Of a DNA stretch of 64,000 nucleotides, positions 13,752-34,649 are shown piece by piece. Each line of letters opens with the position of its first letter. Within the stretch, counting starts at the first letter, position 1. The notes beneath the pieces are model-generated. The model searched no databases, was not told where the DNA came from, and was given only the letters and a program-made list of their open reading frames with translations. Both the position numbers and the translations under genes were made by a program. The stretch comes from Candidatus Rokubacteria bacterium 13_1_40CM_69_27 (GTDB taxonomy: Bacteria > Methylomirabilota > Methylomirabilia > Rokubacteriales > CSP1-6): the NCBI GenBank assembly GCA_001917535.1, contig MNEF01000029.1:13815-77814 (forward strand), given 5' to 3'.

Positions 13752-13954
13752 GAGGCTCTCGGTGCGAACGGGTGGCGGGGGAGCACTCCCCATCCGTCAG
13801 CAGCCTGTGGCACCTCGCGCGGAGGGCGGAAGAAATCACGACGGACGCCAGGGGTCGATTCGCCTCGCCCGCAACGCAAGTCGGCGACAGCGATGCCGGA
13901 TGGGGGGGGCGACCCCGACAGGACCCGTTCGCACCGAGAGCCTCATGCCCTGAC
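13743..13954. mobile_element. MITE-like element: ~150-bp core flanked by ~31-bp terminal inverted repeats, between hpnG and hpnA
   Basis: gtcagg-catgaggctctcggtgcgaacgggt (13743-13773) is the reverse complement of acccgttcgcaccgagagcctcatgccctgac (13923-13954); inner 20 bp perfect; the repeats contain the hpnG stop (TGA) and hpnA start (ATG). Confidence 0.5.
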
Positions 13955-15985: not shown

Positions 15986-16757
15986 GCGCTCTCAACCCCC
16001 CTCGTTCCGAAACCGCCGCCCCTCTCCGCGCTCAGACGCAGCACGCGGAGAGAGACCGCGCTGAGCGCGTGGAGCGCGAGACCCACCCCCAAGAGCGGCC
16101 ACTCGCCGATCCACGCCGTCACGGCCAAATTGAACCCGAGCACCGCGTAGTATAACGCGACGCCGGCCCCGAGGCGGCGGTCTCCGGGGGCTGGGCCCGC
16201 TCCCCCCGCGAGCAGATAGGCGCCCACGCCGATCACCCCCACCAGCCACCAGCCGGCGAAGTTCGACAGCGGGACACCGAAGTACACGCCGCCCTCCGGA
16301 TAGTAGAAGACCCGCCCCAGGAACCAGCGGTCGCCGCGGACGGCGAGGGGGTCGATCACCACGTCCAGAAGCATCATCAGGAAGCCCGTGCACCCCGCCA
16401 GGGCCAGGCGGGACACCCGCCGACCGGCCAGGGCCGCGCGGGCCAGGCAGAACGCCGCGTAGGCCAGGAACGTGAACGACAGCGAGTCCATGAACGGCAC
16501 GTTGGCGATGTAGAGCTCCTGCCCTCGCGTGGTGCCGGTATAGTGGTAGAGCCCGAACGGCACGCCCACGCGCGTCGAGGAGAACTCGGCGAGCCACGCC
16601 ACCGGCCAGACCCCGGTCGCGAAGAGCAGCGTGCGGCGCCACCCGAGGTCGGCCGCGCCGGCGGCCAGAAACGCCGCCAGGAAGCCGAAGACGTAGGGGC
16701 GCAGCACGATCGTGCCGAAGAGCAGTTCCATGGGTTTTCCGCGGCGAATCCGCATGT
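15982..16757 (-). CDS. Polytopic membrane protein, unknown function (start at 16757 or 16733)
   Basis: MELLFGTIVLRPYVFGFLAAFLAAGAADLGW... ~7 hydrophobic segments; stop overlaps hpnH ATG; divergent from shc. Confidence 0.5.
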
Positions 16758-18676
16758 TACCATCTGCGATCGTGACAGGGCTCTCCGAAGCCATCTCCCG
16801 CGCTCAGGTCCACCTCCTCTCCCGCCAAGCCGCCGATGGCTACTGGGTCGGCGAGCTGGAAGCCGACACGACGATCACGTCCGAGTACCTGCTGCTCTGT
16901 CATCTCATCGACCGGGTGAATCGCGAGCGGGAACTCAAGGCGGTGCGGTATCTGAGGTCGCGGCAGCTCCCCGACGGCGGCTTCAATCTCTTCGAGGGGG
17001 GGCCAACCAATCTGTCGGCCACGATCAAAGCGTACTTCGCCATGAAGATGGCGAGCGTGGCGGTCGACGATCCGGCCATGGTCCGGGCCCGAGAGCGCAT
17101 CCGCGCCATGGGCGGCCCGGCCCGGGCCAACGTCTTCACCAAGATCCAGCTGGCGCTCTTCGGCGAGTACGACTGGAACGGCGTGCCGGCGATGCCGGTG
17201 GAGATCATGCTGCTGCCGCCGCCGTTCTTCCTGTTCAACATCTACGAGGTCTCGTACTGGTCACGGACCGTGATCGTGCCGCTGCTCATCATCATGGACC
17301 GCAAGCCGGTGAAGTGGCTGCCGCCCCACCTCTCCCTCGACGAGCTGTGGCCGGTGCCGCGCGAGCAGACCAGCCTGCGCTTTCCCCGCCTGCCCGAGCC
17401 GTTCTCGTGGCGCGCGCTGTTCTGGAAGAACTTCTTCATCGCCGTGGACGACGGCCTCAAGATCTGGGAGCGCTTCTCGCCCCGGCCCCTGCGCAAGCGC
17501 GCGGTGGAGGCGGCGCGGCTGTGGCTGGAGGAGCGGCTGGCCGTGCCCGGCGGGCTGGGCGGGATCTACCCGGCGATGGCGTACGCGGTGGTGGCCCTGA
17601 GGCTGCTCGGCTATCCCGACGACCATCCGCTGATCCGCGGCCAGCTCAAGGAGATCGAGGCGCTGGCGCGCGAGGATGCCGACCAGATCCACTACCAGCC
17701 CTGCCTGTCGCCGGTGTGGGACACGGCGCTGGCCATCAACGCGCTCATCGAGAGCGACCTCGAGCCCGACCATCCGGCGCTCCGACGCGCGGGCGAGTGG
17801 CTGCTCGACGGTCAGGTGCTGGTGTCCGGCGACTGGCAGGTGAAGCGGCCCTACGTGCAGCCGGGGGGCTGGGTCTTCCAGTACGCGAACGACTACTACC
17901 CGGACCTGGACGACACCGCCATGGTGCTCATGGCGCTCGAGAAGCTCCGCGGTCTCGATCCCGATCGTGTGCAATCGGCTCAGGAGCGCGGCCTGGGCTG
18001 GCTCCTCGGCATGCAGGCCACCGACGGCGGCTGGGCCTCGTTCGACACCGACCAGAAGCGGCTCTACCTCAACAACATCCCATTCGCCGACCACGGCGCC
18101 CTGCTCGATCCCTCGACCGAGGACCTGACCGGCCGCGGGCTGGAGCTGCTCGGGACCTGCGGCTACCGAGCGGATTTCGAGCCGGCCCGGCGCGGGCTCC
18201 AGTTTCTCCGGCACACGCAGCGCCACGACGGCCCGTGGTTCGGCCGCTGGGGCGTAAACTACGTCTACGGCACCTGGTCGGTGCTGCGGGGACTGCGCGC
18301 GATCGGCGAGGACCCCCAGCAGGAGTACGTGCAGCGGGCGGTGCGCTGGTTGGAGCGCCACCAGAACCCGGACGGCGGCTGGGGCGAGACCTGCGAGAGC
18401 TACGACCGGCCGGAGCTGGCCGGCAAGGGCGACTCGATCCCGAGCCAAACCGCCTGGGCCTTGCTGGGGCTCCTGGCGGCCGGCTCCACCAACCGGCGCG
18501 TCATCGACGCCGGCATCGGTTATCTCTTACAGACACAGCGTGCGGACGGCTCCTGGGAAGACTCGCGGTGGAACGGGACGGGCTTTCCCCGCGTCTTCAT
18601 GCTCAAGTACCACCTCTACGCCGCGTACTTTCCCCTCTGGGCGCTCGGGGTCTACCGCCGAACCCTCGATGGCTGA
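16754..18676 (+). CDS. shc: Squalene-hopene cyclase
   Basis: MLPSAIVTGLSEAISRAQVHLLSRQAADGYWVGELEADTTITSEYLL...; QW repeats; GWVFQYANDYYPDLDDTAMV (DxDD protonation motif). Confidence 0.9.
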   Translation: MLPSAIVTGLSEAISRAQVHLLSRQAADGYWVGELEADTTITSEYLLLCHLIDRVNRERELKAVRYLRSRQLPDGGFNLFEGGPTNLSATIKAYFAMKMASVAVDDPAMVRARERIRAMGGPARANVFTKIQLALFGEYDWNGVPAMPVEIMLLPPPFFLFNIYEVSYWSRTVIVPLLIIMDRKPVKWLPPHLSLDELWPVPREQTSLRFPRLPEPFSWRALFWKNFFIAVDDGLKIWERFSPRPLRKRAVEAARLWLEERLAVPGGLGGIYPAMAYAVVALRLLGYPDDHPLIRGQLKEIEALAREDADQIHYQPCLSPVWDTALAINALIESDLEPDHPALRRAGEWLLDGQVLVSGDWQVKRPYVQPGGWVFQYANDYYPDLDDTAMVLMALEKLRGLDPDRVQSAQERGLGWLLGMQATDGGWASFDTDQKRLYLNNIPFADHGALLDPSTEDLTGRGLELLGTCGYRADFEPARRGLQFLRHTQRHDGPWFGRWGVNYVYGTWSVLRGLRAIGEDPQQEYVQRAVRWLERHQNPDGGWGETCESYDRPELAGKGDSIPSQTAWALLGLLAAGSTNRRVIDAGIGYLLQTQRADGSWEDSRWNGTGFPRVFMLKYHLYAAYFPLWALGVYRRTLDG

Positions 18677-19463
18677 CGCACCGACCTGGGCCGTCCTCCG
18701 TCCGTTCGAGCTGCTGGGCGAACGGGTGCTCGGCCTGCTCGAATCGCTGGGGCGTTTCGGCTCGTTCTTCGCGCGCGCCGTCCTCTCCATGGTCACGCCG
18801 CCGTTCAAGGTCCGCGCCTTCGTCGACCGCATCGACTACATCGGGTATCGCTCGCTGGTCATCATCGTTCTGACGGGCGCGTTCACCGGGATGGTGCTCG
18901 GCCTCCAGCTCTTCCTGACCCTCTCCCGGTTCGGCTCGGAGGCCTTCCTGGGCCCGGCGGTGGCGCTGGGGCTCATCCGGGAGTTGGGGCCGGTGCTGGC
19001 CGCGCTCATGGTGACCGGCCGGGCCGGCTCGGCGCTCACCGCCGAGATCGGGATCATGCGGATCACCGAGCAGATCGACGCGCTCACGGTGATGGCCCTG
19101 AGCCCGTTCCGCTACCTGGTGACGCCGTCGATCCTGGCCGGCGTCGTCACCTTCCCCCTCATGACCGCGCTCTTCGACGTGGTGGGGATCTTCGGCGGCT
19201 ACCTGGTGGGGGTGAAGCTTCTGGGGCTGTCGGAGGGCACCTACTTCGGCGAGATGCAGACGTTCGTCCACCTGGACGACATCTTGACCGGCTTCTGGAA
19301 GTCGCTGTCCTTCGGCGTGCTCGTCACCTGGGTCTGCACCTACAAGGGCTACTACGTCGGCCACGGCGCCGAGGGCGTGGCGCGGGCGACAACGCAGGCG
19401 GTGGTGCTGTCGTCCGTGCTCATTCTGCTCTGGGACTACTTCCTGGGCTCGGTACTGCGGTGA
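18669..19463 (+). CDS. mlaE: MlaE-family ABC transporter permease
   Basis: MADAPTWAVLRPFELLGERVLGLLESLGRFGSFFARAV...; start overlaps shc stop (ATGGCTGA). Confidence 0.85.
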   Translation: MADAPTWAVLRPFELLGERVLGLLESLGRFGSFFARAVLSMVTPPFKVRAFVDRIDYIGYRSLVIIVLTGAFTGMVLGLQLFLTLSRFGSEAFLGPAVALGLIRELGPVLAALMVTGRAGSALTAEIGIMRITEQIDALTVMALSPFRYLVTPSILAGVVTFPLMTALFDVVGIFGGYLVGVKLLGLSEGTYFGEMQTFVHLDDILTGFWKSLSFGVLVTWVCTYKGYYVGHGAEGVARATTQAVVLSSVLILLWDYFLGSVLR

Positions 19464-19654
19464 TCGTGGTGAGTCTATGATCGTGGCCGTGCGAGCCGCA
19501 GCCGAAGGTGAGGCGAGCCTGTGATCGTGGCCGTGCGAGCCGCAGGACGGCGGCGGGCCGCTGGGCGAGCCGCCGGGCGCCCAGGGGCTGGGGCCCCTGC
19601 GCCCGAGGCGAGCGAACCTCGAGAGCCCCGCCCGTCGGAGGCGAGCCTGTGATC
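19461..19654. repeat. Tandem direct repeats in mlaE-mlaF spacer, duplicating the mlaF initiation region
   Basis: tgatcgtggccgtgcgagccgcag at 19478-19501 and 19522-19545; gaggcgagcctgtgatc at 19510-19526 and 19638-19654 (the second carries the mlaF GTG start). Confidence 0.5.
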
Positions 19655-20404
19655 AAAGTCGAGGGGCTCACCAAGTCCTTCGACGGCCAGATGGTCCTCC
19701 GGGGCTTGGAGCTGGAAGTGCGCGACGGGTCGATCACGATCATCATCGGCCGGAGCGGCGGCGGCAAATCGGTCTTTCTCAAGCATCTGCTCGGCCTCCT
19801 GCGTCCGGACGCCGGCCGCGTCCTGGTAGGCGGCGTCGACCTGACCGGCGTCTCCCGGCGCGAGATCGACCGGGTTCGCGATCGGTACGGGGTCGTCTTC
19901 CAGGGCGGCGCGCTCTTCGACTCGCTGACGTGCGCGCAGAACGTCGCCTTCCCGCTGCGCGAGAAGACCCGCCTGGGCCGCGCGGAGATCACCAAGCGCG
20001 TGGAGGTGGGGCTGGCCCAGGTGGGACTGGAGGGCGTCGGCCCCAAGTACCCGGAGGAGATCTCGGGGGGCATGCGCAAGCGCGTGGCGATCGCCCGGGC
20101 GCTCATCACGGAGCCGGAGATCGTCTTCTTCGACGAGCCGACGACCGGGCTCGATCCCATCCTCGTGAACAGCATCCACGGGCTCATCCAGGATCTCCAC
20201 CGGCGCTTCGGCTTCACCGCGGTGATGGTGAGCCACGAGATCCCCGAGATCTTCGGGATCGCCGATACGGTGGCGATGCTGCACGACGGCCGGATCGTCG
20301 AGGTCGGACCGCCGGAGGCGATCCAGGGGTCGCGGAATCCCATCGTCCAGCAGTTCATCCGCGGCCAGCCCGACGAAGGCGGAGCCTTCAAGGAGAGCGG
20401 CTGA
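19649..20404 (+). CDS. mlaF: MlaF-family ABC transporter ATP-binding protein (GTG start)
   Basis: VIKVEGLTKSFDGQMVLRGLELEVRDGSITIIIGRSGGGKS...LSGGMRKRVAIARAL...FFDEPTTGLD. Confidence 0.85.
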   Translation: MIKVEGLTKSFDGQMVLRGLELEVRDGSITIIIGRSGGGKSVFLKHLLGLLRPDAGRVLVGGVDLTGVSRREIDRVRDRYGVVFQGGALFDSLTCAQNVAFPLREKTRLGRAEITKRVEVGLAQVGLEGVGPKYPEEISGGMRKRVAIARALITEPEIVFFDEPTTGLDPILVNSIHGLIQDLHRRFGFTAVMVSHEIPEIFGIADTVAMLHDGRIVEVGPPEAIQGSRNPIVQQFIRGQPDEGGAFKESG

Positions 20405-20844
20405 TGGACCGGTCCAAGGTGAATATCGCGGTGGGGATCTTCGTCGTCCTGGGTATCTTGGCATTGGGGTACCTTTCCATTAAACTCGGCAGGGTCAGTT
20501 TCTTCACGGGTGGCGGCTATCAAGTGACGGCCGATTTCCCCTCCGTGGGAGGCTTGCGACCCGGCGCCAGCGTCGAGATCGCCGGCGTCGAGGTCGGGCG
20601 GGTCGAGTCCATCGGGTTGGCGGACTATCAGGCGCACGTCGTCCTCCGGCTCAATTCGGACGTGAAGCTGCAGGATGATGCGATCGCGTCGATCAAGACC
20701 AAGGGCCTGATCGGCGAGAAATTCATTCGCATCAGTCCCGGCGCCTCCGAGAAGCTCATCGCGCCGGGGGGCCGTATCCGCGAGATCGAGGCTCCCGTCG
20801 ACCTCGAAGAACTGATCTCCAAGTACGTGTTCGGGAAGGTGTAG
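20404..20844 (+). CDS. mlaD: MlaD-family MCE-domain protein
   Basis: MDRSKVNIAVGIFVVLGILALGYLSIKLG...; single N-terminal TM + MCE domain; TGATG overlap with mlaF. Confidence 0.8.
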   Translation: MDRSKVNIAVGIFVVLGILALGYLSIKLGRVSFFTGGGYQVTADFPSVGGLRPGASVEIAGVEVGRVESIGLADYQAHVVLRLNSDVKLQDDAIASIKTKGLIGEKFIRISPGASEKLIAPGGRIREIEAPVDLEELISKYVFGKV

Positions 20845-20867
20845 TCGCAGGAACGGGAGGTCCGCCA

Positions 20868-21500
20868 ATGACGTCGTTACAGCGTGGCTTCGCGCTCGTG
20901 GTCGCCCTGGTCCTGGCCGCGGTGGTCGGCCCGGCGCCCGCGGCCGCCGCCGGTCCGACCGACCAGCTGCGCGCCCAGATCGACAAGGTCGTGAAGACGC
21001 TCGAGGACCCCGCGTTCAACAAGGAAGGCCAGGCCAAGGAACGCCGGGTGGCGGTGCGCAAGATCGCGGAGGAGATCTTCGACTTCGGCGAGACCGCCAA
21101 GCGCTCGCTGGCGCGCCACTGGCTGGCGCGCACGCCGGCCGAGCGCGAGGAATTCGTCGCGCTGTTCGCCGATCTCCTGGAGCGCTCGTACATCTCGAAG
21201 GTCGAGCTGTTCAACGGCGAGCGGATCACCTACACCGGGGAGACCATCGACGGCGACCAGGCCGTCGTGAAGACCAAGATCATCACCAAGCAGGGGACCG
21301 AGATCCCCGTCGACTACCGCCTGCTGCGAAGGGGCGAGCGCTGGCTCGTCTACGACGTGATCATCGAGGGCGTGAGCCTGGTCGCCAACTACCGGACGCA
21401 GTTCAACAAGATCATCCAGACCTCGTCCTATCAGGAGCTGGTCAAGAAAATGAAGACCAAACAGGAAGAGTTCCTCGAGCAGGAGAAGAAGCGGACATGA
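20868..21500 (+). CDS. hpnM: MlaC/Ttg2D-family periplasmic lipid-binding protein (HpnM-like)
   Basis: Signal peptide MTSLQRGFALVVALVLAAVVGPAPAAAAG; ...KVVKTLEDPAFNKEGQAKERRVAVRKIAEEIFDF... Ttg2D fold. Confidence 0.7.
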   Translation: MTSLQRGFALVVALVLAAVVGPAPAAAAGPTDQLRAQIDKVVKTLEDPAFNKEGQAKERRVAVRKIAEEIFDFGETAKRSLARHWLARTPAEREEFVALFADLLERSYISKVELFNGERITYTGETIDGDQAVVKTKIITKQGTEIPVDYRLLRRGERWLVYDVIIEGVSLVANYRTQFNKIIQTSSYQELVKKMKTKQEEFLEQEKKRT

Positions 21501-23164
21501 GCAAGGCCCACGCGCTCCGCGAGCTGCTGGCCGGTCCCGGTCTGGTCCCCGCAGTGGGGGCCCACGACGCGCTCAGCGCGAAGCTGATCGAGGCCGCCGG
21601 GTTTCCCGTCGTCTGGTCGTCCAGCTTCACCGTCTCCGCCGCCCAGCGGGCCATGCCCGACGTCAACCTCCTGACGATGACCGAGACGCTGGAGGCGGCG
21701 CGGCACATCGACAACGCCGTGAGGCTCCCCGTGATCGCCGACTGCGACAACGGCTACGGCAACGCCGTGAACGTCGTGCGGACGGTGGAGGAGTACGAGC
21801 GGGCGGGCATCGCCGGCATCTGCATCGAGGACAACCTCTTTCCGAAGAAATGCAGCCTCTATCCGGGGATGCGGCGCGAGCTGGCGTCGATCGAGGAGCA
21901 CGCCGGCAAGATCCGCGCGGCCAAGAAGGCCCAGCGGGATGCGGCGACGGTCATCATCGCCCGCACCGAGGCGCTGATCGCCGGCTGGGGGATGAAGGAG
22001 GCGCTGCGGCGCGCCCAGGCCTACGCCGAGGCGGGGGCCGACATGATCCTCATGCACTCGAAGGCGCCGACCGCGGCCGAGGTGCTGGAGTTCATGCGAC
22101 TCTGGGAGCGGCCCACGCCCATCGTGGTGGTGCCCACCCTCTACCCGTCGGTGACCTTCGAGGAGCTGGAGGCGGCGGGCGTCAAGCTCGTCATCTGGGC
22201 GAACCAGGTGCTGCGGGGCGCCGTGAAGGGCATGCAGGAGACGCTGGCGACGCTCGGGCGGGCCCGCCGCCTCGACGCCCTGGCCCCCCACATCGTCGCG
22301 CTGGAGGAGATCTACCGTTACGTCGGCGTGGACGAGTTCAAGCGGATCGAGACGGAGTTCCTGCCGCGGGGCGCCTCGGACGTGCGGGCCGTCATCATCG
22401 CGGCGGGCTCGGGCAAGTCGCTCCTGCCGCTGACCGAGGACCGGCCCCAGTGCATGCTCGACATCAAGGGGCGGACGGTGCTGGAGCGGCAGCTCGAGAC
22501 GCTGCGCGCCGGCGGTATCCAGGAGATCGCGGTGGTCCGCGGCTACCGCAAGGAGACCGTGGTGGCCCCGGGGGTGCGCTTCTACGACAACGACGCCTTC
22601 GACGAGAGCGGCGAGCTCGCCTCGCTCTTCGCGGCCGAGCCCGAGCTGCACGGCCGCGTCCTCTTCCTCTACTCGGACATCCTGTTCGAGCGCGCGGTGC
22701 TGGACAAGGTGCTCCGCGCCGAAGGGGACGTCGTCATCGCCGTGGACCGCGCCTGGGTGGACCAGCGGGACCGCCTGCTGCCGCTGGCCAAGCCCGTGGA
22801 TCTGGTGGTCACCTCCGACCCGCCCCGGCCCGGCCGCCGCTCGCTCGGCGAGGACTGGCGTGACGAGCTGGTGCTGATCGGCCAGCGCATCGCCCCGGAG
22901 GCGGCCACCGGCGAGTTCATCGGGCTGGCGGCCCTTTCGCCGCGGGGCGTGGAGCTCGCGCGCGAGAGCCACGCCCACGCTGTGGCCGCGGGCGCCGCAC
23001 CCTTTCACGAGGCGGCCAGCGTCCGGTACGCCGCCTTCACGGACCTGCTGCAGACGCTGGTGGCGGCCGGCCACCCCGTCACCTGCGTGAGCACGTGGAA
23101 GGGCTGGCTCGAGATCGACACGTTCGAAGACTACCAGCGCGCCTGGGCCGAGATCAGGTCGTAG
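21497..23164 (+). CDS. Phosphoenolpyruvate mutase fused to C-terminal nucleotidyltransferase domain
   Basis: N-term ~290 aa: ...LLTMTETLEAARHIDNAVRLPVIADCDNGYGN...GICIEDNLFPKKCS (PEP mutase/ICL family with the EDK(x)5NS-type motif); C-term ~250 aa: AVIIAAGSGKSLLPL...KGRTVLERQLETL (NTP_transferase fold). Confidence 0.85.
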   Translation: MSKAHALRELLAGPGLVPAVGAHDALSAKLIEAAGFPVVWSSSFTVSAAQRAMPDVNLLTMTETLEAARHIDNAVRLPVIADCDNGYGNAVNVVRTVEEYERAGIAGICIEDNLFPKKCSLYPGMRRELASIEEHAGKIRAAKKAQRDAATVIIARTEALIAGWGMKEALRRAQAYAEAGADMILMHSKAPTAAEVLEFMRLWERPTPIVVVPTLYPSVTFEELEAAGVKLVIWANQVLRGAVKGMQETLATLGRARRLDALAPHIVALEEIYRYVGVDEFKRIETEFLPRGASDVRAVIIAAGSGKSLLPLTEDRPQCMLDIKGRTVLERQLETLRAGGIQEIAVVRGYRKETVVAPGVRFYDNDAFDESGELASLFAAEPELHGRVLFLYSDILFERAVLDKVLRAEGDVVIAVDRAWVDQRDRLLPLAKPVDLVVTSDPPRPGRRSLGEDWRDELVLIGQRIAPEAATGEFIGLAALSPRGVELARESHAHAVAAGAAPFHEAASVRYAAFTDLLQTLVAAGHPVTCVSTWKGWLEIDTFEDYQRAWAEIRS

Positions 23165-24324
23165 TGAGCGGACGCGACTTCGCCGCCCTGCTGGAGCGCC
23201 GGGGGTTCGACTTCTTCGCGGGCGTACCCTGCTCGCTGATCGAAGACCTGATCGCGAACCTCGAGAGCCATCCGCGCCTACCCTACATCGACGCCGTCCG
23301 GGAAGACGTGGCGGTGGGCCTGGCCGGGGGCGCCTGGCTGGCCGGCCGGCGCCCCGCGGTCCTCATGCAGAACTCAGGGCTCGGCACGAGCCTGAACGCG
23401 CTCGCCTCCTTCTCCTTGATGTACGGCCTGCCGGCGCTGCTGCTCGTCACCTGGCGCGGCTTCGGCGGCAAGGACGCGCCCGAGCACATCCTCATGGGCG
23501 AGATCTCCCCGGGCCTGCTGGACCTGCTGGGCATCCCCTACCACGTGCTGGCCGGCGACTCGCTCGAGGCGGGCGTCGCCTGGGCGCGGGAGGAGATGGA
23601 CGCCCGCATGAGCCCGGTGGCGCTGCTCATCCCGCCCGGCATATTTTACTCGGAGGGGGCCTCGACGGCCCCCTCCGAAGCCTCCCCCAGGATTGCGCCG
23701 GCAAAGCCGGCGCTCGAACCGCGGCCGCGCCACCGCGCGGAAGGCGCACCGTTGGTGGCGAGGATTTCCCGGATGCAGGCGATCACGGCGGCGGTCAAGC
23801 AGCTGGGTGACGAGCCGGCCATCCACGCCAACGGCTACCCGTCGCGCGAGTCCTGCGCGGTCGCCGACCGCCCGCAGAACTTCTACATGATCGGCTCCAT
23901 GGGCCTGGCTTCGGCCATCGGCCTGGGCGTGGCGCTCGGCCGACCCCAACGGCGCACGATCATCTTCGACGGCGACGGGAACCTCCTGATGAACCTCGGC
24001 GTGATCACCAACGTCGCCGCGCTGGCTCCGCGCAACTTCATCCACTGCGTCTTCGACAACGAGGCCTACGGCTCGACCGGCAACCAGCGGTCGGCGTCGG
24101 CGCACGTCCGGCTCGATCGGGTGGCCGCGGCGGCCGGCTACCGGACGGTGGCGGCGGTGACCGAGGCCGACGAGGTCGCCGCGGCGCTCCGGACGATGCT
24201 CGCCTCGGACGGTCCCCACTTCCTCCTCGCGAAGGTGACGCGCGAGCAGGCGAAGGTCCCGCGGATCCCCCACACCCCCCCGGCGATCCGCGACCGCTTT
24301 CGCGCCAGCATGCTGGGACCGTGA
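23164..24324 (+). CDS. Phosphonopyruvate decarboxylase (ThDP-dependent), carrying an in-frame repeat insertion
   Basis: VSGRDFAALLERRGFDFFAGVPCSLIEDLIANL... (pyrimidine-binding half) and ...GSMGLASAIGLGVALG...IIFDGDGNLLMNLG (ThDP-binding GDG motif); TAGTG overlap with PEP mutase stop. Confidence 0.8.
   Translation: MSGRDFAALLERRGFDFFAGVPCSLIEDLIANLESHPRLPYIDAVREDVAVGLAGGAWLAGRRPAVLMQNSGLGTSLNALASFSLMYGLPALLLVTWRGFGGKDAPEHILMGEISPGLLDLLGIPYHVLAGDSLEAGVAWAREEMDARMSPVALLIPPGIFYSEGASTAPSEASPRIAPAKPALEPRPRHRAEGAPLVARISRMQAITAAVKQLGDEPAIHANGYPSRESCAVADRPQNFYMIGSMGLASAIGLGVALGRPQRRTIIFDGDGNLLMNLGVITNVAALAPRNFIHCVFDNEAYGSTGNQRSASAHVRLDRVAAAAGYRTVAAVTEADEVAAALRTMLASDGPHFLLAKVTREQAKVPRIPHTPPAIRDRFRASMLGP
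23649..23745. repeat. REP/MITE-like element copy C, inserted in frame inside the phosphonopyruvate decarboxylase CDS
   Basis: tcggagggggcctcgacggccccctccgaagcctcccccaggattgcgccggcaaagccggcgctcgaa matches the intergenic copies; encodes the interdomain stretch EGASTAPSEASPRIAPAKPALEPRPRH. Confidence 0.55.
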
Positions 24325-25061
24325 AGGCCATCATCCTCGCCGCCGGCGTGGCCCGCCGCCTCGCGCCGCTCACCGACCGGACGCACAAGTGCCTGCTGCC
24401 CGTGGGCGACCGGCCGCTGCTCACCCGGATGCTGGCCGCCCTGGAGGCCGTCGGCGTCGCCGAAGCGCTGCTCGTCGTCGGTCACTGCGCGGACCAGGTC
24501 CGCGCGGTGGCGGGCGCGCGCTTCGGCCGGATGAGGGTTCGCTACATCGACAACCCGGAGTACACCAGGGGCTCGGTGCTGTCGCTCTACGCCGCGCGCG
24601 AGCACCTCGCCGAGCCCGCCCTGGTGATGGACGCCGACGTCCTCTTTTCCCGCGAGCTCCTGCGTCGCCTGCTGGCGGCGCCGCCCCCCAGCGCCTTCCT
24701 CCTCGATCGCGGGTTCCAGGATACGGGCGAGGAGGTGAAGTACTACACGCGGGGCGATCGGGTGATCGCGCTCGGCAAGAAGGTCGTGCCCGAGTCCTGG
24801 GAGCTCGCGGGGGAGGGTGTCGGCTTCTTCAAGTGTGGCGCCGAAGCCGGCCCCGAGCTGGTCCGCCTGCTCGAGCGCGTCATCGCCGCGGGCAACGGCC
24901 TCAACGAGTACGAAGACGCCCTGCACCTCCTGGTCACGCGGCGTCACGTCGGGTGGGTCGACATCACCGGCCTGCCCTGGACCGAGATCGACTTCGCCGA
25001 GGACCTGCGCCGCGCGCGGGACGAGGTGCTGCCGCACGTCGTCCGGCTCGACGGCGCGTGA
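24321..25061 (+). CDS. Nucleotidyltransferase, LicC/cytidylyltransferase-like (candidate phosphonate cytidylyltransferase)
   Basis: VKAIILAAGVARRLAPLTDRTHKCLLPVGDRPLLTRMLAAL...: GxGxRL-like motif; GTGA overlap with ppd stop. Confidence 0.7.
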   Translation: MKAIILAAGVARRLAPLTDRTHKCLLPVGDRPLLTRMLAALEAVGVAEALLVVGHCADQVRAVAGARFGRMRVRYIDNPEYTRGSVLSLYAAREHLAEPALVMDADVLFSRELLRRLLAAPPPSAFLLDRGFQDTGEEVKYYTRGDRVIALGKKVVPESWELAGEGVGFFKCGAEAGPELVRLLERVIAAGNGLNEYEDALHLLVTRRHVGWVDITGLPWTEIDFAEDLRRARDEVLPHVVRLDGA

Positions 25062-26224
25062 TCACCGAGGCCGCGCTCTATCTCGCGAGCCCCGAGGACG
25101 CGAGCAGGGCGCGTTCAGCGGTGGCCGGCCGGCCGGTCGCCTTCCGGATGCTGATGGCGGCGATCCGCGCGGGGTGCCGGCGGGTGTACGTTCCGGACAT
25201 CTTCCGGGGCAGCGACGTCGAGCGCGCCATCGCGGCGGCCGCCTCCGCGCGGGCCGCCACCGTCTGGCTCGATCACGACGCGAAACCGCCGGAGGGGCCG
25301 ATCCTGCTCCTACCCGCCGCCGCCCTCGTCCCGCCCTCCGCGCTGGCCGCGCTGCTGGCCGCGCCTCCCCTCGCGCTCCTGGCCGCCTCCCGCGACAGCG
25401 ACGCGCCCGTGGTGGCCGCCGGCGCGGCCCTGGCCGCGGCGCTCTGGACGTCGATCGCGGCGGGTCAGCCGCTGGGAGATGCGTTGGAGCGCGCCCTCAA
25501 GGGCACCGAGGTCACGGTGATTCCGGGCGCCGGATGGTACGTGCGGTCGGTGTCGCCCGCGGCCGGGAAGGAGGCGGAGGTGCAGATCTACGCCGGCCTG
25601 GCCAGCGCCATCGACACCTGGCTCGACACGGTCTTTCATCGGCGCTTGTCACTTCCGCTGAGCCGGGCGGCGGTAGCGGGGGGCCTGACGCCCAACCAGG
25701 TCACCCTGGCGAGCCTGCTGGTGGGCCTGGGGGCGGTCTGGTGTTTCTGGCAGGCGACGCCGGCTCGCGCGATCGTCGGGCTGCTGCTCTACGCGGCGGC
25801 CGTCGTCCTCGACCACGCCGACGGTGAGGTCGCGCGGCTCACCCTCACCGAGTCACCGCTGGGCGCGTGGCTCGACGTGGCGGTGGACACCGCGATCCAC
25901 GCGCTGCTCGTCGTGGCTATGGGCATGACGGCCCAACAGGTCGGGGGCGACGGCGCCGCGCTGGCCGGGGTGGTGGCGGCGATCGGCGTCGTGGCGAGCG
26001 CGACGCTGACGCAGACCTCGCCGCCGGCCCGAGGCGGCGGGATCGGCCTGCTGCTCGACGCACTGAGCAACCGGGACGGGTTCTACGCGATGCTGGTCAT
26101 CTTCATCCTGGGGCTCGCGCTCCGGCCAGGCGCGCTCCCCGCGCTCATGATCTTCCTGGCGGTCGGCTGTCACGCCTTCTGGTTGAGCCGGTTGGCCTGG
26201 CGCCCGTTCCTGCGCACTAAGTGA
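25058..26224 (+). CDS. Bifunctional-type protein: degenerate nucleotidyltransferase-like N-domain + CDP-alcohol phosphotransferase membrane domain (IPCT/DIPPS- or BEPIS-like)
   Basis: C-terminal half with ...LDHADGEVARLTLTESPLGAWLDVAVDTAIH (CDP-OH_P_transf D-G-x2-A-R...D-x3-D motif) and 5-6 TM segments; N-terminal ~190 aa soluble; GTGA overlap. Confidence 0.65.
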   Translation: MITEAALYLASPEDASRARSAVAGRPVAFRMLMAAIRAGCRRVYVPDIFRGSDVERAIAAAASARAATVWLDHDAKPPEGPILLLPAAALVPPSALAALLAAPPLALLAASRDSDAPVVAAGAALAAALWTSIAAGQPLGDALERALKGTEVTVIPGAGWYVRSVSPAAGKEAEVQIYAGLASAIDTWLDTVFHRRLSLPLSRAAVAGGLTPNQVTLASLLVGLGAVWCFWQATPARAIVGLLLYAAAVVLDHADGEVARLTLTESPLGAWLDVAVDTAIHALLVVAMGMTAQQVGGDGAALAGVVAAIGVVASATLTQTSPPARGGGIGLLLDALSNRDGFYAMLVIFILGLALRPGALPALMIFLAVGCHAFWLSRLAWRPFLRTK

Positions 26225-26355: not shown

Positions 26356-27051
26356 ATGTCGGCGAACAGCTGCGGACTTACTGGAGCTGTGCTGTTCGAT
26401 TTCGGCGGCACGCTGGATGCCGACGGTCTACCCTGGAAAGAGCGCGTGGCCCGGCTCTTTAGGCAGGAGGGCCTCGTCGTTACGGTTGAGCGGTTCGATC
26501 CCCTCTTCTACGCGGCGGACGACGCGCTCGTCGGTGCGGTGCCGCCCACCCTGCCGCTTCGGGAAACGGTGTTTCGGCTCGTAGCCGGTCTGGCCCGCAG
26601 CCTCGGGCTGCGTGACGACACCATGGTCGATCGCGTCACGACACGATTCGTCGAGCATGCGGTAGAGAACCTGCGGGGCAATCGGCCCCTGCTCTGGGAG
26701 CTCAGCCGCCGCTACCGTTTGGGCCTCGTCGCCAACTTCTACGGCAATCTCGCCGCGGTGTGTGCGGAGTGCGGAATCCGCGAGCTCTTCGGCGTCATCT
26801 TAGATTCGGCAGACGTGGGATGCGCGAAACCGGACCCCAAGATCTTTCGCATAGCGGCCGAGGCGCTGGGGCTAGCGCCCGCTCACGCCCTGTTCGTGGG
26901 CGACTCCCGGCCCCGCGACATGGCCGGCGCACGAGCGGCCGGCATGCCCCACGTCTGGTTGGTCGGCGAGACCTCTAGCGACGGGCAGCCCTGCTGTCCG
27001 GGCGACGCGGTGATCCGTTCGCTGAAGGACCTGGAAGAGCTGCTATTGTGA
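26356..27051 (+). CDS. HAD-superfamily hydrolase (phosphatase-like)
   Basis: GAVLFDFGGTLD (motif I DxG), ...LGLVANF..., ...FVGDSRPRDMAGARAAG (motif IV). Confidence 0.65.
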   Translation: MSANSCGLTGAVLFDFGGTLDADGLPWKERVARLFRQEGLVVTVERFDPLFYAADDALVGAVPPTLPLRETVFRLVAGLARSLGLRDDTMVDRVTTRFVEHAVENLRGNRPLLWELSRRYRLGLVANFYGNLAAVCAECGIRELFGVILDSADVGCAKPDPKIFRIAAEALGLAPAHALFVGDSRPRDMAGARAAGMPHVWLVGETSSDGQPCCPGDAVIRSLKDLEELLL

Positions 27052-27758
27052 CGCGTGAGCCGACGCTTCGAGGAGGCATCATCGCGGCGGGCAAGGGTCG
27101 CCGGTTGCGCCAGGGGGGCTGGACGATGCCCAAGCCTCTGGTTCCCATCGCCGGTGTGCCCTTGATCGAGTCGGTGATTCGGAACTTCAGCGCCGCGGGC
27201 ATCACCTCCCTCGTCATCATCGTGAACGAGCAAGGACGCGACTGCTTGGAGCACGTGCGCCGGCGCTTCCCCGACCTGGACCTGGACTTCATCGTGAAGA
27301 CTACCGCGTCGTCCCTCGAGAGTTTCGGCGAGGTGGCGACGCGTCTGGGTCGTGGCCGCGCATTGATTTCGACGGTCGACGCCTGGTGCCGGGAAGCCGA
27401 CTTCGTGCACTTCGTGGAGGCGGCGCGACAGCGCCCGGTTCAGGCGACGGTCCTCGCGGTGACGCCGTTGGTGTCGGATGAAGACCCGCTGTGGGTGAGG
27501 CTTGACGACGACGGCCGTGTCAGCGATCTCGGGGGCCGCTCGGGCGAGATGGTCACCGCTGGGATCTATCTGGTCTCCGAGCGTGTGCGGACGATGGTCC
27601 CGCCGTCCGAGCTGGCGCGGCTGCGGGACTTCTTGACCTGGCTCCACTCCCGGGGAGAGGTGCTCTGCGGCGAAGTCATCCAAACGGTCGTCGATGTCGA
27701 CGAGGCCGAAGACGTGGCCCTCGCCGAAGCGCTGGTGGGCGCCGGCAAGAACCCGTGA
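27048..27758 (+). CDS. Nucleotidyltransferase (sugar/alcohol-phosphate NTP-transferase fold)
   Basis: VTREPTLRGGIIAAGKGRRLRQGGWTMPKPLVPIAGVPLIESVIRNF...; GTG start overlaps HAD stop. Confidence 0.65.
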   Translation: MTREPTLRGGIIAAGKGRRLRQGGWTMPKPLVPIAGVPLIESVIRNFSAAGITSLVIIVNEQGRDCLEHVRRRFPDLDLDFIVKTTASSLESFGEVATRLGRGRALISTVDAWCREADFVHFVEAARQRPVQATVLAVTPLVSDEDPLWVRLDDDGRVSDLGGRSGEMVTAGIYLVSERVRTMVPPSELARLRDFLTWLHSRGEVLCGEVIQTVVDVDEAEDVALAEALVGAGKNP

Positions 27759-27777: not shown

Positions 27778-28614
27778 GTGAGCCGAGCATGTTGGGGCAT
27801 TTTTCGAGAACGGGCGCATTCGCCCGGTCGGGAGAGCGACGACACCGAAATCCTCCGTCTGACGGGAAAGCACCTCGAGGCGAATGGGTACGAGGTGATC
27901 TTGAAGGCGCCGGAGGAGGTGAACGGCGCCACCGACGGCCGCCCGCGCTTTGCGTTCCTGATGTGTGAAGGTCTCGCCGTGCTGGGCCAACTCCGGGCCT
28001 GGGAGGCCGACGGGGTGCGGCAGGTGAACAGCCCCCTGGCGGTCCTGAACACGTATCGGGAGCGGATGATCGCGCAGCTCAAGGAGGCGAACGTTCCGTT
28101 CATCCAGAGCCGTATCGTTTCGACCGCCGAGCCCTACCGTGGCGCGGCTCCGCCCGTATGGGTCAAGCGAGCCGATGTTCACTACACCCAGGAGGGCGAT
28201 GTGGTCTTCGCGCCCAGCGAGGGTGTGCTCGGCGAGTCGCTCCGGGGGCTGGCCGAGCGCGGGATTCCCCGCGCGGTGATCCAGGCGCACGTCGAGGGCG
28301 ACCTCATCAAGTTCTACGGGATCGGCAGCGGAGGCGGAGCCGACGGCGGGCCACAGTGGTTTCGGTGGCTCTATCACAAGGACCAGACGGTGGCCGGCCA
28401 CCCGTTCGACCCGGTGCGATTGGCCCGGCTCGTGCGGAGAGCGGCCGGAGCCCTGAGCCTCGAAGTCTACGGGGGCGACGCAATCGCCACCGCAGCCGGT
28501 GACCTCGTGTTGCTCGACCTCAACGCCTGGCCCAGCTTCGCCCTGTATCGGGAGGAGGCGGCCGCCCGCATCGCCGCCTACCTCGCCCTTCGCTTCCGGG
28601 AAGAGGCGCTGTGA
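27778..28614 (+). CDS. ATP-grasp-fold protein (putative carboxylate-amine/alcohol ligase); start uncertain
   Basis: ...ILRLTGKHLEANGYEVILKAPEEVNG...WVKRADVHYTQEGDVVFAPSEG...VIQAHVEGDLIKFYGIGSGG...; RimK/GshB-like topology; first in-frame start after upstream stop is GTG 27778. Confidence 0.5.
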   Translation: MSRACWGIFRERAHSPGRESDDTEILRLTGKHLEANGYEVILKAPEEVNGATDGRPRFAFLMCEGLAVLGQLRAWEADGVRQVNSPLAVLNTYRERMIAQLKEANVPFIQSRIVSTAEPYRGAAPPVWVKRADVHYTQEGDVVFAPSEGVLGESLRGLAERGIPRAVIQAHVEGDLIKFYGIGSGGGADGGPQWFRWLYHKDQTVAGHPFDPVRLARLVRRAAGALSLEVYGGDAIATAAGDLVLLDLNAWPSFALYREEAAARIAAYLALRFREEAL

Positions 28615-32728: not shown

Positions 32729-33721
32729 ATGCGCTCCATCCGTTTGGGGTTCCTCGCGCTGGGGGCGACGCTGCTCGTCGGCCTGATCGTCGAGAACGAC
32801 CCGGGAGCGATCCTGGCCTCCATGTCGCAGCTGTCCTGGCGGCTCCTCATCGTGCTCTGCTTCCCGATGCCGCTCGTCGCGCTCTTCGACACGCTTGGGT
32901 GGCGTTCCGCGTTCCCGCGGCACCGCGTCGCGTTCCGCACGCTGCTGTCGGTGCGGCTCGCCGGCGAAGCCTTCAACATCACCACTCCCACGGCCGCCCT
33001 GGGCGGCGAGGCCGTCAAGGCCTGGCTGCTGCGGGATCGCGTCCCGCTCGACGAGAGCCTGCCGTCCCTGATCGTGGCGAAGACGACGATCACGATCGCG
33101 CAGGGTGTCTTCCTCCTGCTCGGGGTCACGCTCGCTCACTGGACGTTGCCGCCGGATTCGCTGCTGCTCCGGGGCATGCAGGCGTTGCTGGTGGTGGAGG
33201 TCGTTGCCCTGACCGGATTCGTCCTCGCCCAGATGCGGGGCGTGCTCGGATGGGGCAGACGCCTGCTGAGCGGCTTCGGCTTCGGCTTGCCGCGGTTCTT
33301 CGAGGCCCGCGGCACGCTCGAGCGCGTCGACGACGGGCTGGCACGCTTCTACCGCCACGAGCGGGGGCGATTTATCGCGTCGATTCTCTGGCATCTCGTC
33401 GCCTGGCTGCTTGGTTCGGTCGAGACCTACCTGATCCTCCGCTTCATCGGTGTGGGCGTGTCGTTGACCACCGCCACCGTGATCGAAGCCTTCGGCGCCG
33501 CCGTCCGCGTCGCCACATTTTTGATCCCGGCCAGTCTGGGGGCCCTCGAGGGCGGCTTCGTCGCGACGTTCGTGGCCCTGGGGCTCGGGCCGACCGCCGG
33601 CGTCTCGTTCAGCCTGGTGCGGCGCGTGCGCGAGGCGACCTGGGCCGGAGTCGGACTCGTGGCGTTCGCGGCGCGCGCCCGGTCGCAGGCGCGTGGCCAC
33701 CGCCCGGCTTCCGCCCACTGA
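32729..33721 (+). CDS. Lysylphosphatidylglycerol-synthase-TM / UPF0104 'flippase-like' membrane protein (possibly HpnL-related)
   Basis: MRSIRLGFLALGATLLVGLIVENDPGAILASMSQLSWRLLIVLCFPMPLVALFDTLGWRSAF...: ~8 TM, conserved Arg/Glu pattern of LPG_synthase_TM domain. Confidence 0.6.
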   Translation: MRSIRLGFLALGATLLVGLIVENDPGAILASMSQLSWRLLIVLCFPMPLVALFDTLGWRSAFPRHRVAFRTLLSVRLAGEAFNITTPTAALGGEAVKAWLLRDRVPLDESLPSLIVAKTTITIAQGVFLLLGVTLAHWTLPPDSLLLRGMQALLVVEVVALTGFVLAQMRGVLGWGRRLLSGFGFGLPRFFEARGTLERVDDGLARFYRHERGRFIASILWHLVAWLLGSVETYLILRFIGVGVSLTTATVIEAFGAAVRVATFLIPASLGALEGGFVATFVALGLGPTAGVSFSLVRRVREATWAGVGLVAFAARARSQARGHRPASAH

Positions 33722-33754: not shown

Positions 33755-34502
33755 TCAGCGCGTGAGGGGGGAGGCGCGGCGGGCGGCGCCGCCAAAGACC
33801 GACCGGAAGCCGAAGTAGGCGATCGAGTCCTTCATGTTCGACACGAACCGCTTGAGCGGACTCATTCCCGGGTCCGTGACGTACTCGAGCGTGAGGCTCA
33901 CGCGCTCCTCGCCCTCGCCCAGCGGCGTGATCGTGTGCCACAGGTTGTCGCCGTTGAACAGCACGAGGGTGCCCGGCTCGGTGGCCAGCCGGATCTCCAG
34001 GGGCTCGCGCCGCGGGTCCTTGCGGTAGGGCTGGCAGACCAGGCGGCTCGACGACCGCTCGATGAGGCCTACCAGCACCGTGTAGCGGGCACCGTTGTAA
34101 TAAGACGTGTCGAAGTGGAAGCCGATATGATCGCCCGGCTCGGTGTAATAGTAGAGCGCGCACGCGTGCGGATCGGTGTCGGGACAGCACTGGAGCGGTC
34201 GTCCCGTCACCCGGCGCAGGAAGTCGATGAACGCGGGCGAGCGGTAGAGCGCCAGGATGGCCGGCGCTTCGGCCGCCAGCGTGAAGGAGCTCACGCTGCC
34301 GCCCTTCTTGTGCTTGGGGATGTAGTTGCGGTGAACGGCGGGCCGGACGCGCTCGACCTCGGCCACCAACGGCTCGATGACGGACGACGGCAGGCAGCGC
34401 TCGAGATAGACGAACTCGTTCTGCCGCCAGTACGCCGCCTGCACCGCCTCCACGTCGAGCGCGCGGATCACGCGCGCGATCTCCTCCTGCACCGGGTCCA
34501 TC
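33755..34502 (-). CDS. 2OG-Fe(II) oxygenase-superfamily protein (putative hydroxylase); start uncertain
   Basis: ...[24 protein letters not shown]...[11 protein letters not shown]...: H-x-D...H facial-triad spacing of 2OG-FeII_Oxy/PhyH-like enzymes. Confidence 0.5.
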
Positions 34503-34649
34503 AGGCGATCGAGCACTCGGCCCTCCGGGCGATCGTGTCGGCTCGCTGGCGACGCGCGGCCCCGCCCGCTATGGTACACTGGCCCGGTCCCGCTGACCGG
34601 GGGATCGTTCCCGCTCATCGCGCGTTCATATCGACGAAGGAGGCACCCC

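Follow-up and report, generated by a model that had tools for sequence, protein, structure and literature searches.

Positions 21497..23164 (+ strand) of a 64,000-nucleotide stretch of DNA from Candidatus Rokubacteria bacterium 13_1_40CM_69_27 (contig MNEF01000029.1; the whole stretch is called the window below) encode a protein that joins an N-terminal domain resembling phosphoenolpyruvate (PEP) mutase (Ppm) to a C-terminal nucleotidyltransferase domain. Judged by its sequence, this fusion protein is a member of a large and conserved branch of PEP-mutase-like proteins, here called Cys-type for a cysteine in the gating loop, that motif filters have overlooked. The fusion is probably a genuine PEP mutase, and would be the first enzyme of a pathway that makes phosphonate head groups for membrane lipids. 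Its features, and those of the genes directly downstream, are:

21497..23164, +: fusion gene, PEP-mutase-like domain plus LicC/PntC-type nucleotidyltransferase domain, 555 amino acids, ATG start (open reading frame, Pfam, public gene calls, AlphaFold2 model)
21824..21862, +: gating-loop motif IEDNLFPKKCSLY, residues 110-122 (alignment to solved mutases)
22400..22459, +: nucleotidyltransferase P-loop AAGSGKSLLPLTEDRPQCML, residues 302-321 (alignment to LicC)
23108..23134, +: C-terminal LEIDTFEDY motif, residues 538-546 (matches YEIDSVQDY of LicC)
23164..24324, +: thiamine pyrophosphate (TPP) enzyme resembling phosphonopyruvate decarboxylase (Ppd), 386 amino acids, alpha and beta parts fused, GTG start (TPP_enzyme_N and TPP_enzyme_C, Pfam)
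24321..25061, +: second nucleotidyltransferase (NT2), 246 amino acids, LicC/IPCT/PntC-like (Pfam, NCBIfam, loop AAGVARRL...THKCLL)
25058..26224, +: CDP-alcohol phosphotransferase 1 (CDP-OH1), 388 amino acids, intact signature, N-terminal extension of ~190 amino acids

A PEP-mutase-like domain with a variant gating loop

The PEP-mutase-like domain of the fusion comprises residues 1 to ~292 and the nucleotidyltransferase domain residues ~296 to 555. Pfam places the TIM-barrel domain of the superfamily (PEP_mutase, PF13714) at residues 7-251 (E 6.6e-60) and NTP_transf_3 (PF12804) at residues 298-418 of the same polypeptide (44.9 bits against a gathering cut-off of 27), and the AlphaFold2 model has two folded domains (mean pLDDT 81). 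The original prediction of this fusion, which was of a single 555-residue polypeptide joining the two domains, is thus borne out. Four public contigs carry an identical gene, with gene calls that agree with those of the window, and the protein is 100% identical to an annotated protein of 'Candidatus Rokubacteria bacterium 13_1_40CM_4_69_5'. The architecture itself is already known, and is the commonest type rather than an unusual one: 59.5% of the motif-defined PEP mutases in RefSeq are fused to another domain (33% to PF12804), ~60% of motif-defined Ppm enzymes carry a fused nucleotidyltransferase, and two-thirds of ppm neighbourhoods contain a nucleotidyltransferase (Rice et al. 2019, Nat Commun, PMC6697681).

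The best solved match of the N-terminal domain is the Ppm structure 5UNC (E 1.7e-81; Foldseek TM 0.94 at 48% identity); identity to Mytilus Ppm is 40%. In sequence and predicted fold alike, Ppm (5UNC, Mytilus) ranks closest, phosphonopyruvate hydrolase (PPH) second and the methylisocitrate lyases a distant third, and the best NCBIfam model is PEP_mutase (281.6 bits vs 180.6 for PrpB).

The gating loop departs from this pattern. In alignment, the window has IEDNLFPKKCSLY where Streptomyces 5UNC has IEDKRFPKVNSF and the Mytilus enzyme LEDKLFPKTNSLH, so that EDNLFPKKCS occupies the place of the signature EDKX5NS. N113 stands for Mytilus K116 and C119 for N122, while K117 (K120) and S120 (S123) are retained. 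The canonical Ppm active-site signature that had been expected in the N-terminal domain is therefore absent. (Loss of Ppm-specific residues had been named beforehand as a sign of a lyase; formally the EDN...CS loop is such a loss, but the wider evidence favours a variant mutase over a lyase.) The Mg2+ and PEP/oxalate ligands are all present in the window protein, as W40, S42, D55, D82, D84, E111, K117, S120, R156 and H187, corresponding in the same order to W44, S46, D58, D85, D87, E114, K120, S123, R159 and H190 of the Mytilus enzyme. When the two classes are compared, these ten residues and D115 (Mytilus numbering) are common to Cys-type proteins and canonical Ppm. Eight positions separate the classes (L48F, E72R, K102E, K116N, T121R/K, N122C, I/L125Y and Q130R, canonical residue first), and five of these substitutions lie within the gating loop, residues 115-133.

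Conservation in the branch was scored in the 120 closest homologues or database clusters (57-100% identity) and in 80 genome loci. The ...CS ending is found in 117 of the 120 (one more reads SS), and 118 are built on an EDN..FPK scaffold. The pattern ED[NAST]xFPK[KRTQ]CS is present in 79 of the 80 loci, the exception (L033) being a match whose 5' truncation leaves the motif out. The lineages represented are Rokubacteria/Methylomirabilota, Sorangium and other Polyangiaceae, Planctomycetota, Omnitrophota, Binatia, Acidobacteriota, Thermodesulfobacteriota and a metagenome-assembled genome (MAG) labelled Chlamydiae. Among the best 150 representatives, at 50% identity, of the whole library, 88 read K..NS, 26 [NS]..CS and 11 N..NS. 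In a neighbour-joining tree the CS and N..NS sequences fall outside the clade of canonical KNS sequences and nearer a lyase-like outgroup. (This tree is crude, being built on BLOSUM distances with no support values, and is used solely for the position of the Cys-type sequences outside the KNS clade.)

Other variants exist beside the Cys-type. A set with EDNxxxxxNS, which keeps Asn122 and has lost Lys116, includes representatives P0130, P0137, P0142, P0183, P0195 and others, and further PEP-mutase-like representatives read ..HS or ..SS; all of these would likewise fail a strict EDKX5NS filter, and the crude tree places them between Cys-type and canonical sequences. Three contigs labelled as Candidatus Nitrosocosmicus (an archaeon) and Verrucomicrobiia (L010, L005 and L058) each carry the fusion at 73-78% identity, L010 and L005 with a Rokubacteria-type cluster in identical synteny; these are probably mis-binned contigs in public MAGs.

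A perfect match to EDKX5NS is the definition of a PEP mutase in Rice 2019 (PMC6697681), in Li & Horsman 2022 (PMC8942020) and in an actinomycete survey of December 2025. With its EDN...CS loop the fusion therefore counts as 'presumed non-Ppm' under the field's definition; nothing relevant on motif variants of Ppm was found in the literature searched. If Cys-type proteins are active mutases, Asn122 would be dispensable for the mutase reaction and estimates of phosphonate producers would be too low: the filter would have hidden a branch of enzymes forming carbon-phosphorus (C-P) bonds, along with its environmental carriers. The branch is widespread in lineages of soil and groundwater (Rokubacteria, Polyangiaceae including cultured Sorangium, Planctomycetota, Omnitrophota, Binatia and Acidobacteriota).

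Gene context and a proposed route to phosphonolipids

The fusion gene is embedded in a run of ten genes with overlaps at SHC/MlaE, MlaF/MlaD, MlaC/fusion (ATGA), fusion/Ppd, Ppd/NT2 (GTGA) and NT2/CDP-OH1 (GTGA); the genes for squalene-hopene cyclase (SHC), MlaE, MlaF, MlaD, MlaC/HpnM, the fusion, Ppd, NT2 and CDP-OH1 form a single operon-like run of overlapping stops and starts. At the upstream boundary the ATG of the fusion overlaps the MlaC stop. At the downstream boundary the fusion ends with TAG at 23162-23164 and Ppd starts with GTG at 23164-23166, which is the 1-nucleotide overlap in the string TAGTG that had been claimed for the decarboxylase start; public gene calls put the first base of Ppd at the same position, 23164.

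The best NCBIfam model of the decarboxylase is TIGR03297 (301.5 bits), well above the sulfopyruvate decarboxylase models, and its best PDB matches are the putative Ppd alpha and beta subunits of 9IZ3. Reading this gene as a sulfopyruvate decarboxylase is less likely (301 bits for the Ppd model vs 178 for ComE and 119 for ComD). Ppd is a single fused polypeptide in Rokubacteria; it is split into alpha and beta reading frames, in the manner of ComD/ComE, in Sorangium (L038, 11670-12742), in Planctomycetia (L062, 19102-20187) and in the lineage of locus L087. Besides the fusion and Ppd, the window contains two further nucleotidyltransferases and two CDP-alcohol phosphotransferases, both of the latter with PF01066. 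CDP-OH1 keeps the DxxDGxxAR(x8)GxxxDxxxD signature (string DHADGEVARLTLTESPLGAWLDVAVD in the alignment with AF2299), and its closest solved structures are AF2299 and IPCT/DIPPS. The count of three nucleotidyltransferase domains within 6 kb made in the original prediction agrees with Pfam, which finds them in the fusion, at 24321-25061 and at 27048/27126-27758 (NT3, for which the public gene call starts at 27126). The number partly reflects a strain-specific acquisition, described below.

In most related loci Ppd and then the second nucleotidyltransferase come after the fusion, often with genes for a CDP-alcohol phosphotransferase and an HpnL-like protein behind them. Sorangium cellulosum So0157-2, whose fusion orthologue lies at 10001-11665 of locus L038, has a module limited to this set: fusion, split Ppd, second nucleotidyltransferase, CDP-alcohol phosphotransferase and HpnL-like gene. 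In the Planctomycetia-labelled locus L062, an AepZ-type 2-aminoethylphosphonate (AEP) aminotransferase (AEPT) adjoins the split Ppd (TIGR03301, 347.1 bits vs a cut-off of 360.8), and homologues of this aminotransferase (37-76% identity) lie beside a Cys-type fusion in 23 loci outside the window, two of them Rokubacteria loci with the order fusion-Ppd-AEPT-NT2. Mutase, decarboxylase and AEPT are the canonical trio of the AEP pathway, and their repeated occurrence with a Cys-type mutase is the strongest available evidence for phosphonopyruvate synthesis by this branch.

The most economical reading of this context is a pathway from PEP through phosphonopyruvate, phosphonoacetaldehyde and AEP (or 2-hydroxyethylphosphonate, HEP) to a CMP-phosphonate and finally a phosphonyl-lipid. 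The N-terminal domain, as a Cys-type PEP mutase (ED[NAST]xFPKxCS), would convert PEP to phosphonopyruvate, and the translationally coupled Ppd-like decarboxylase would pull this unfavourable equilibrium to phosphonoacetaldehyde. An aminotransferase (AepZ-type in many relatives; here perhaps the class III enzyme of 28611-29939 or the product of a gene elsewhere) would then produce AEP; alternatively, two zinc-dependent alcohol dehydrogenases (Zn-ADHs) of the cluster would reduce phosphonoacetaldehyde to HEP. The CMP-phosphonate would be formed by the fused nucleotidyltransferase and/or NT2, with NT3 a further candidate in the window strain, and a CDP-alcohol phosphotransferase would move the phosphonyl head group onto a lipid alcohol, Kennedy-pathway fashion. 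The acceptor may be diacylglycerol or bacteriohopanepolyol, and export would fall to the HpnL-like, Mla/HpnM-like and HpnN-like proteins. We infer every step of this chemistry, the acceptor lipid and the choice of active nucleotidyltransferase; the sequences themselves show the architecture of the domains, the variant motifs with their conservation, the retention of every Mg/PEP ligand and the gene neighbourhoods. The general scheme originally put forward, in which C-P bond formation, decarboxylation by Ppd and nucleotidyl activation lead to a phosphonolipid or phosphonoglycan, is supported by the gene context. Its suggestion of literal channelling from phosphonopyruvate is unlikely: characterised PntC enzymes use AEP, two steps later (PMC6697681), and direct transfer between the fused domains is therefore not implied.

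A number of observations weigh against the proposed pathway with the fusion as its mutase. EDKX5NS is the motif that defines Ppm in the field, and the fusion fails it at two positions, with Asn at 116 and Cys at 122. Asn122 of the Mytilus enzyme has been implicated by mechanistic work in holding the migrating phosphoryl group, and the cysteine that replaces it (C119 of the window protein) aligns with the catalytic cysteine of lyase members (KKCGH / KRCGH), C123, which is the general-acid position of isocitrate and methylisocitrate lyases. The PEP_mutase score of 281.6 bits, although the best of any model, is below the curated cut-off of TIGR02320 (319.55), and the Ppd score is just under that of TIGR03297 (312.5). 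No AepZ-type aminotransferase was found in cis in the window or in most Rokubacteria loci by homologue search of the loci, the fused nucleotidyltransferase lacks two LicC motif residues (see below), newer NCBI annotations label Cys-type proteins merely 'isocitrate lyase/PEP mutase family protein', and no assayed member of the branch was found in the literature searched. The loop, the score below cut-off, the eight class-specific substitutions with their concentration in the gating loop, and the position of the branch in the crude tree would suit a domain that catalyses some other reaction of the isocitrate lyase (ICL) superfamily, be it that of a lyase, a hydrolase, or an enzyme making another 3-substituted pyruvate for decarboxylation by the Ppd-like protein. 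Such a reaction is nevertheless quite improbable: the Gly-His of KKCGH / KRCGH is missing and the Ser-Leu of Ppm is kept, sequence and fold are much nearer to Ppm and PPH than to lyases, R159, H190 and K120 are retained, and the consistent linkage to Ppd together with an AepZ-type AEPT in 23 loci makes sense solely downstream of phosphonopyruvate. A catabolic phosphonopyruvate hydrolase is inconsistent with the adjacent decarboxylase, nucleotidyltransferases and CDP-alcohol transferases, and PPH has Thr, not Cys, in the loop. A bisenarsan-like arsenoenolpyruvate mutase was also rejected, in that the proposed carbon-arsenic mutase BsnN belongs to the phosphoglycerate-mutase family and not to the ICL superfamily (PMC4943196, PMC12159101). 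The annotated genes of the region from 8 to 39 kb include no gene for EPSP (5-enolpyruvylshikimate-3-phosphate) synthase and no ars gene.

Which enzyme would activate the phosphonate is less clear-cut. In alignment the fused domain has AAGSGKSLLPLTEDRPQCML where LicC has AAGLGTRLRPLTENTPKALV: in G304-S-G-K307-S308 the Arg of the LicC GxGxR motif falls on S308, with Lys307 one residue before it, and the Lys of the LicC PK motif is Q318 (RPQCML). The G-x-G-x-R/K motif, whose lack the original prediction had named as telling against its C-terminal assignment, is formally wanting (GSGKS, and PQ instead of PK), and this also weighs against the proposed pathway. The closest solved relatives of the domain are LicC (1JYK, E 2e-11) and the PntC of Tde1415 (E 2e-5), and LEIDTFEDY preserves the EID...DY motif. 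It is possible, and is proposed here tentatively, that the fused nucleotidyltransferase of the window strain is weak or inactive, with a structural or regulatory part to play, and that NT2 (loop ...RRL...HK) and the canonical-looking NT3 (GKGRRL...MPKPL) activate the phosphonate. The Lys position points the same way: the consensus across the branch is RPKCM, and ~15 of 121 sequences carry Q, A or T in place of the Lys, varying among close Rokubacteria and including the window strain and its 95% relatives, which suggests relaxed constraint; canonical Ppm-fused nucleotidyltransferase domains also have irregular or degenerate loops. On the other hand, GSGKS is the consensus conserved across the Cys-type branch, and it, LEIDTFEDY and many other residues are invariant down to 57% identity; the neighbouring K307 and R316 could replace the lost residues, most members still have PK, and the fusion is retained across phyla. 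Inactivity of the fused domain would leave the proposed pathway unchanged. (A link between loss of the PK Lys at Q318 and acquisition of NT3 is unsupported, in that the 95% relative that lacks the NT3 block also has PQ.) A different question is whether NT2 and CDP-OH1 belong to the phosphonate pathway at all. Together with an inositol-3-phosphate synthase (MIPS), they might constitute an IPCT/DIPPS-like CDP-inositol route to inositol-phosphate lipids that is independent of the neighbouring mutase and decarboxylase. The bifunctional IPCT/DIPPS model is the best match of NT2 and of both CDP-OH proteins, which also match IPCT and IPCT/DIPPS structures, and a conserved MIPS (81-96% identity) lies 5-8 kb downstream in 12 related Rokubacteria loci (from 14 matches that included the window itself and two mis-binned contigs). 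This route is nonetheless rather unlikely: the pair NT2/CDP-OH travels with the fusion and Ppd in Sorangium, in Planctomycetia (where the pair is fused) and in the L087 lineage, with no MIPS homologue within the fetched flanks of ~10 kb, and all matches to inositol models are far under their cut-offs. NT2 is closest to the LicC, IPCT and Tde-PntC structures, and matches LicC better than IPCT.

Surrounding hopanoid genes and a strain-specific insertion

The module lies within a large hopanoid gene cluster, which the original prediction did not mention. SHC, HpnH, HpnA and HpnD score above their curated cut-offs, and HpnG-, HpnL-, HpnM- and HpnN-like proteins are best matches that score under theirs:

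8223-9215, -: IspH (profile/curated models)
9825-11908, -: two Zn-ADHs, adjoining HpnD
11851-12792, -: HpnD (305.4 bits, above cut-off)
12738-13751, -: HpnA (467.2 bits, above cut-off)
13943-14617, -: HpnG-like (100.8 bits, best match, under cut-off)
14963-15985, -: HpnH (543.5 bits, above cut-off)
15982-16755, -: CruF/Caroten_synth-like membrane protein, between HpnH and SHC
16772-18676, +: SHC (768.7 bits, above cut-off)
18669-19463, +: MlaE, in the same tightly packed run
19649-20404, +: MlaF, same run
20404-20844, +: MlaD, same run
20868-21500, +: MlaC/HpnM-like (HpnM the best curated match, 88.7 bits, under cut-off), same run
32729..33721, +: HpnL-like, flippase-like membrane protein (LPG_synthase_TM; TIGR03476, 165.4 bits, cut-off 195.65)
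33755..34618, -: HalD/2-oxoglutarate (2OG)-Fe(II)-oxygenase-like (weak Pfam match; beside the module in several Rokubacteria)
34650-35723, +: MIPS (503 bits to TIGR03450, under cut-off)
35725-38481, +: HpnN-like RND hopanoid transporter (589.8 bits, best match, under cut-off)

The arrangement with SHC through CDP-OH1 in one run is kept in all Rokubacteria loci with enough flanking sequence. The hopanoid link recurs independently, in differing gene orders, in Planctomycetia- or Omnitrophota-labelled MAGs and in the L087 lineage, a third and unassigned one. In six Planctomycetia- or Omnitrophota-labelled loci the neighbours of the fusion are NT2-CDP-OH (one protein), an HpnG-like protein, HpnA, HpnL, CDP-OH, AEPT, Ppd and HpnH. 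In the L087 lineage (57-58% identity) two Zn-ADHs come first, the fusion and Ppd next, and after them HpnL, CDP-OH, nucleotidyltransferase, a CruF-like protein, HpnA, HpnG and SHC; on two other contigs with the same L087 protein an SQS_PSY gene lies upstream of the Zn-ADHs. In the Sorangium loci, in contrast, no homologues of the window SHC, HpnH, HpnA, HpnD or HpnG were found within 10 kb, nor were any present among the ten open reading frames of L038. The module is therefore not obligatorily linked to hopanoids.

The recurrent embedding raises the possibility that hopanoids and phosphonate head groups are produced together, or even joined, in outer-membrane lipid remodelling. The module might be a hopanoid-tailoring pathway, in which the CDP-alcohol phosphotransferase would add an AEP- or HEP-type head group to a hydroxyl of bacteriohopanepolyol, and Mla/HpnM-, HpnL- and HpnN-like proteins would export the product; this is a speculative proposal, and a doubtful one. 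Such a 'phosphono-hopanoid' would be, to our knowledge, a lipid class never described, and no description of hopanoids linked to PEP mutase or AEP was found in the literature searched. Culturable Sorangium strains with the module make both the mutase and the hopanoid questions directly addressable.

Several of the surrounding genes merit separate comment. A complete Mla-type lipid ABC transporter (MlaE/F/D/C, 18669-21500) between SHC and the fusion is conserved in all Rokubacteria loci and suggests Mla-like trafficking of hopanoids or of the cluster's lipid product. The MlaE-MlaF spacer (19464-19648) is 185 nucleotides long here vs 13 in the 95%-identical relative (L085), and within it the MlaF start region is directly repeated (34-nucleotide copies at 19468 and 19512, and 17-nucleotide copies at 19510 and 19638, the latter ending in the region of the MlaF start codon); it looks like a small duplication or insertion. 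The paired, paralogous Zn-ADHs, which are neighbours of HpnD in the window and immediately precede the fusion in L087 (708-2825), have Tdh/scyllo-inosose-dehydrogenase-like proteins as best matches and could act on phosphonoacetaldehyde, yielding HEP, or on a cyclitol. The CruF/Caroten_synth-like gene recurs near the module in L087 (8740-9735), and its product may be an unrecognised hopanoid-tailoring hydratase. The HalD/2OG-oxygenase-like gene recalls the Burkholderia Group 1 clusters, in which a 2OG oxygenase has been predicted to form 1-hydroxy-AEP. MIPS lies directly upstream of the HpnN-like gene.

Between CDP-OH1 and the 2OG-oxygenase-like gene the window strain carries additional DNA:

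26356-27051, +: HAD hydrolase, inserted block
27126-27758, +: NT3 nucleotidyltransferase, inserted block (start of the public gene call)
27778-28614, +: unknown 278-amino-acid protein, inserted block
28611-29939, +: class III aminotransferase, inserted block
29941-30999, +: GFO/IDH/MocA oxidoreductase, inserted block
31041-32186, +: CDP-alcohol phosphotransferase 2 (CDP-OH2), inserted block
32431-32721: 96-amino-acid open reading frame, inserted stretch

A stretch of ~7.4 kb, from the HAD hydrolase gene to the HpnL-like gene (about 26.3-33.7 kb), is absent from L085, in which CDP-OH1 is directly followed by the 2OG-oxygenase-like gene, MIPS and HpnN. The genes from HAD to GFO are likewise absent from other Rokubacteria loci; the HpnL-like gene is inside the stretch missing from L085, yet co-occurs with the module in several phyla. 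The GC content of third codon positions is 0.79-0.88 in most genes of the stretch (HpnL 0.91) vs 0.92-0.97 in the flanking genes (except MlaD, 0.84). The block looks like an acquired second head-group module, possibly of an inositol or aminocyclitol type. Alternatively, its class III aminotransferase may supply the missing transamination, or act like the hopanoid aminotransferase HpnO.

Comparison with known systems

The Ppm-PntC fusions of Rice et al. 2019 (PMC6697681) have the same order as the window fusion, with the mutase N-terminal and a MobA-like NTP transferase C-terminal, and their neighbourhoods likewise hold Ppd and another, free-standing nucleotidyltransferase. Proteins enter that inventory by an EDKX5NS motif, which the window fusion lacks; only 22 of the 905 fused PF13714 proteins lacked it, and these were dropped as presumed non-Ppm. 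The enzymes assayed were the stand-alone Ari-PntC and the PntC-AEPT fusion Tde1415, and included no Ppm-fused PF12804 domain (PMC6697681). Fom1 of fosfomycin biosynthesis resembles the window fusion in combining, in one polypeptide, Ppm with a cytidylyltransferase, although in Fom1 the transferase is N-terminal and of PF01467 rather than PF12804 (PMC6697681). The Fom1 transferase acts on HEP, a later intermediate, and such fusions therefore imply no direct channelling.

The Group 1 phosphonolipid clusters, reportedly described by Yu et al. 2013, share with the window a Ppm-PntC fusion, Ppd, a second PntC, a 2OG-oxygenase-like protein (a weak match in the window) and lipid genes of CDP-OH type. 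These Group 1 or Burkholderiales_CDP-OH clusters comprise a Ppm-PntC fusion, Ppd, AEPT, a 2OG oxygenase, a second PntC and two phospholipid genes, and their product has been predicted but never isolated (Li & Horsman 2022, PMC8942020). Unlike them, the window lacks a class V AEPT (present in relatives) and has only the class III aminotransferase of the inserted block; its mutase is of the Cys-type, and its module lies in a hopanoid cluster with Mla, HpnL, HpnN and inositol-3-phosphate synthase. The archaeal IPCT/DIPPS (Archaeoglobus 4MND) and AF2299 resemble the module in having a nucleotidyltransferase and a CDP-alcohol phosphotransferase in sequence, with the catalytic Asp signature conserved, and the Planctomycetia-labelled relatives have an IPCT/DIPPS-like single protein that combines the two. 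On the other hand, the module scores far under the cut-offs of these families, and its pair is linked to a mutase and a decarboxylase, not just to inositol-phosphate synthase.

The crystallised Ppm enzymes (Mytilus edulis 1PYM/1M1B and Streptomyces platensis 5UNC) and PPH (2DUA) share 40-49% identity with the window domain at a TM of 0.92-0.94, with all ligands conserved. The window differs from the crystallised Ppm enzymes by K116N, N122C, L48F, T121K/R, I/L125Y and Q130R, which, as read from the alignments, form a coordinated re-design of the lid loop; at position 122 PPH has Thr and the Cys-type branch Cys. The isocitrate and 2-methylisocitrate lyases and the petal death protein (K[KR]CGH) have a TIM barrel and, like the window, a Cys after Lys-Lys/Arg at the equivalent position of the loop. 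In contrast to these lyases, which are 27-31% identical to the window domain among the Foldseek matches, the window loop continues with Ser-Leu/Phe and not Gly-His, and its gene context is of a phosphonate type rather than that of propionate or glyoxylate metabolism.

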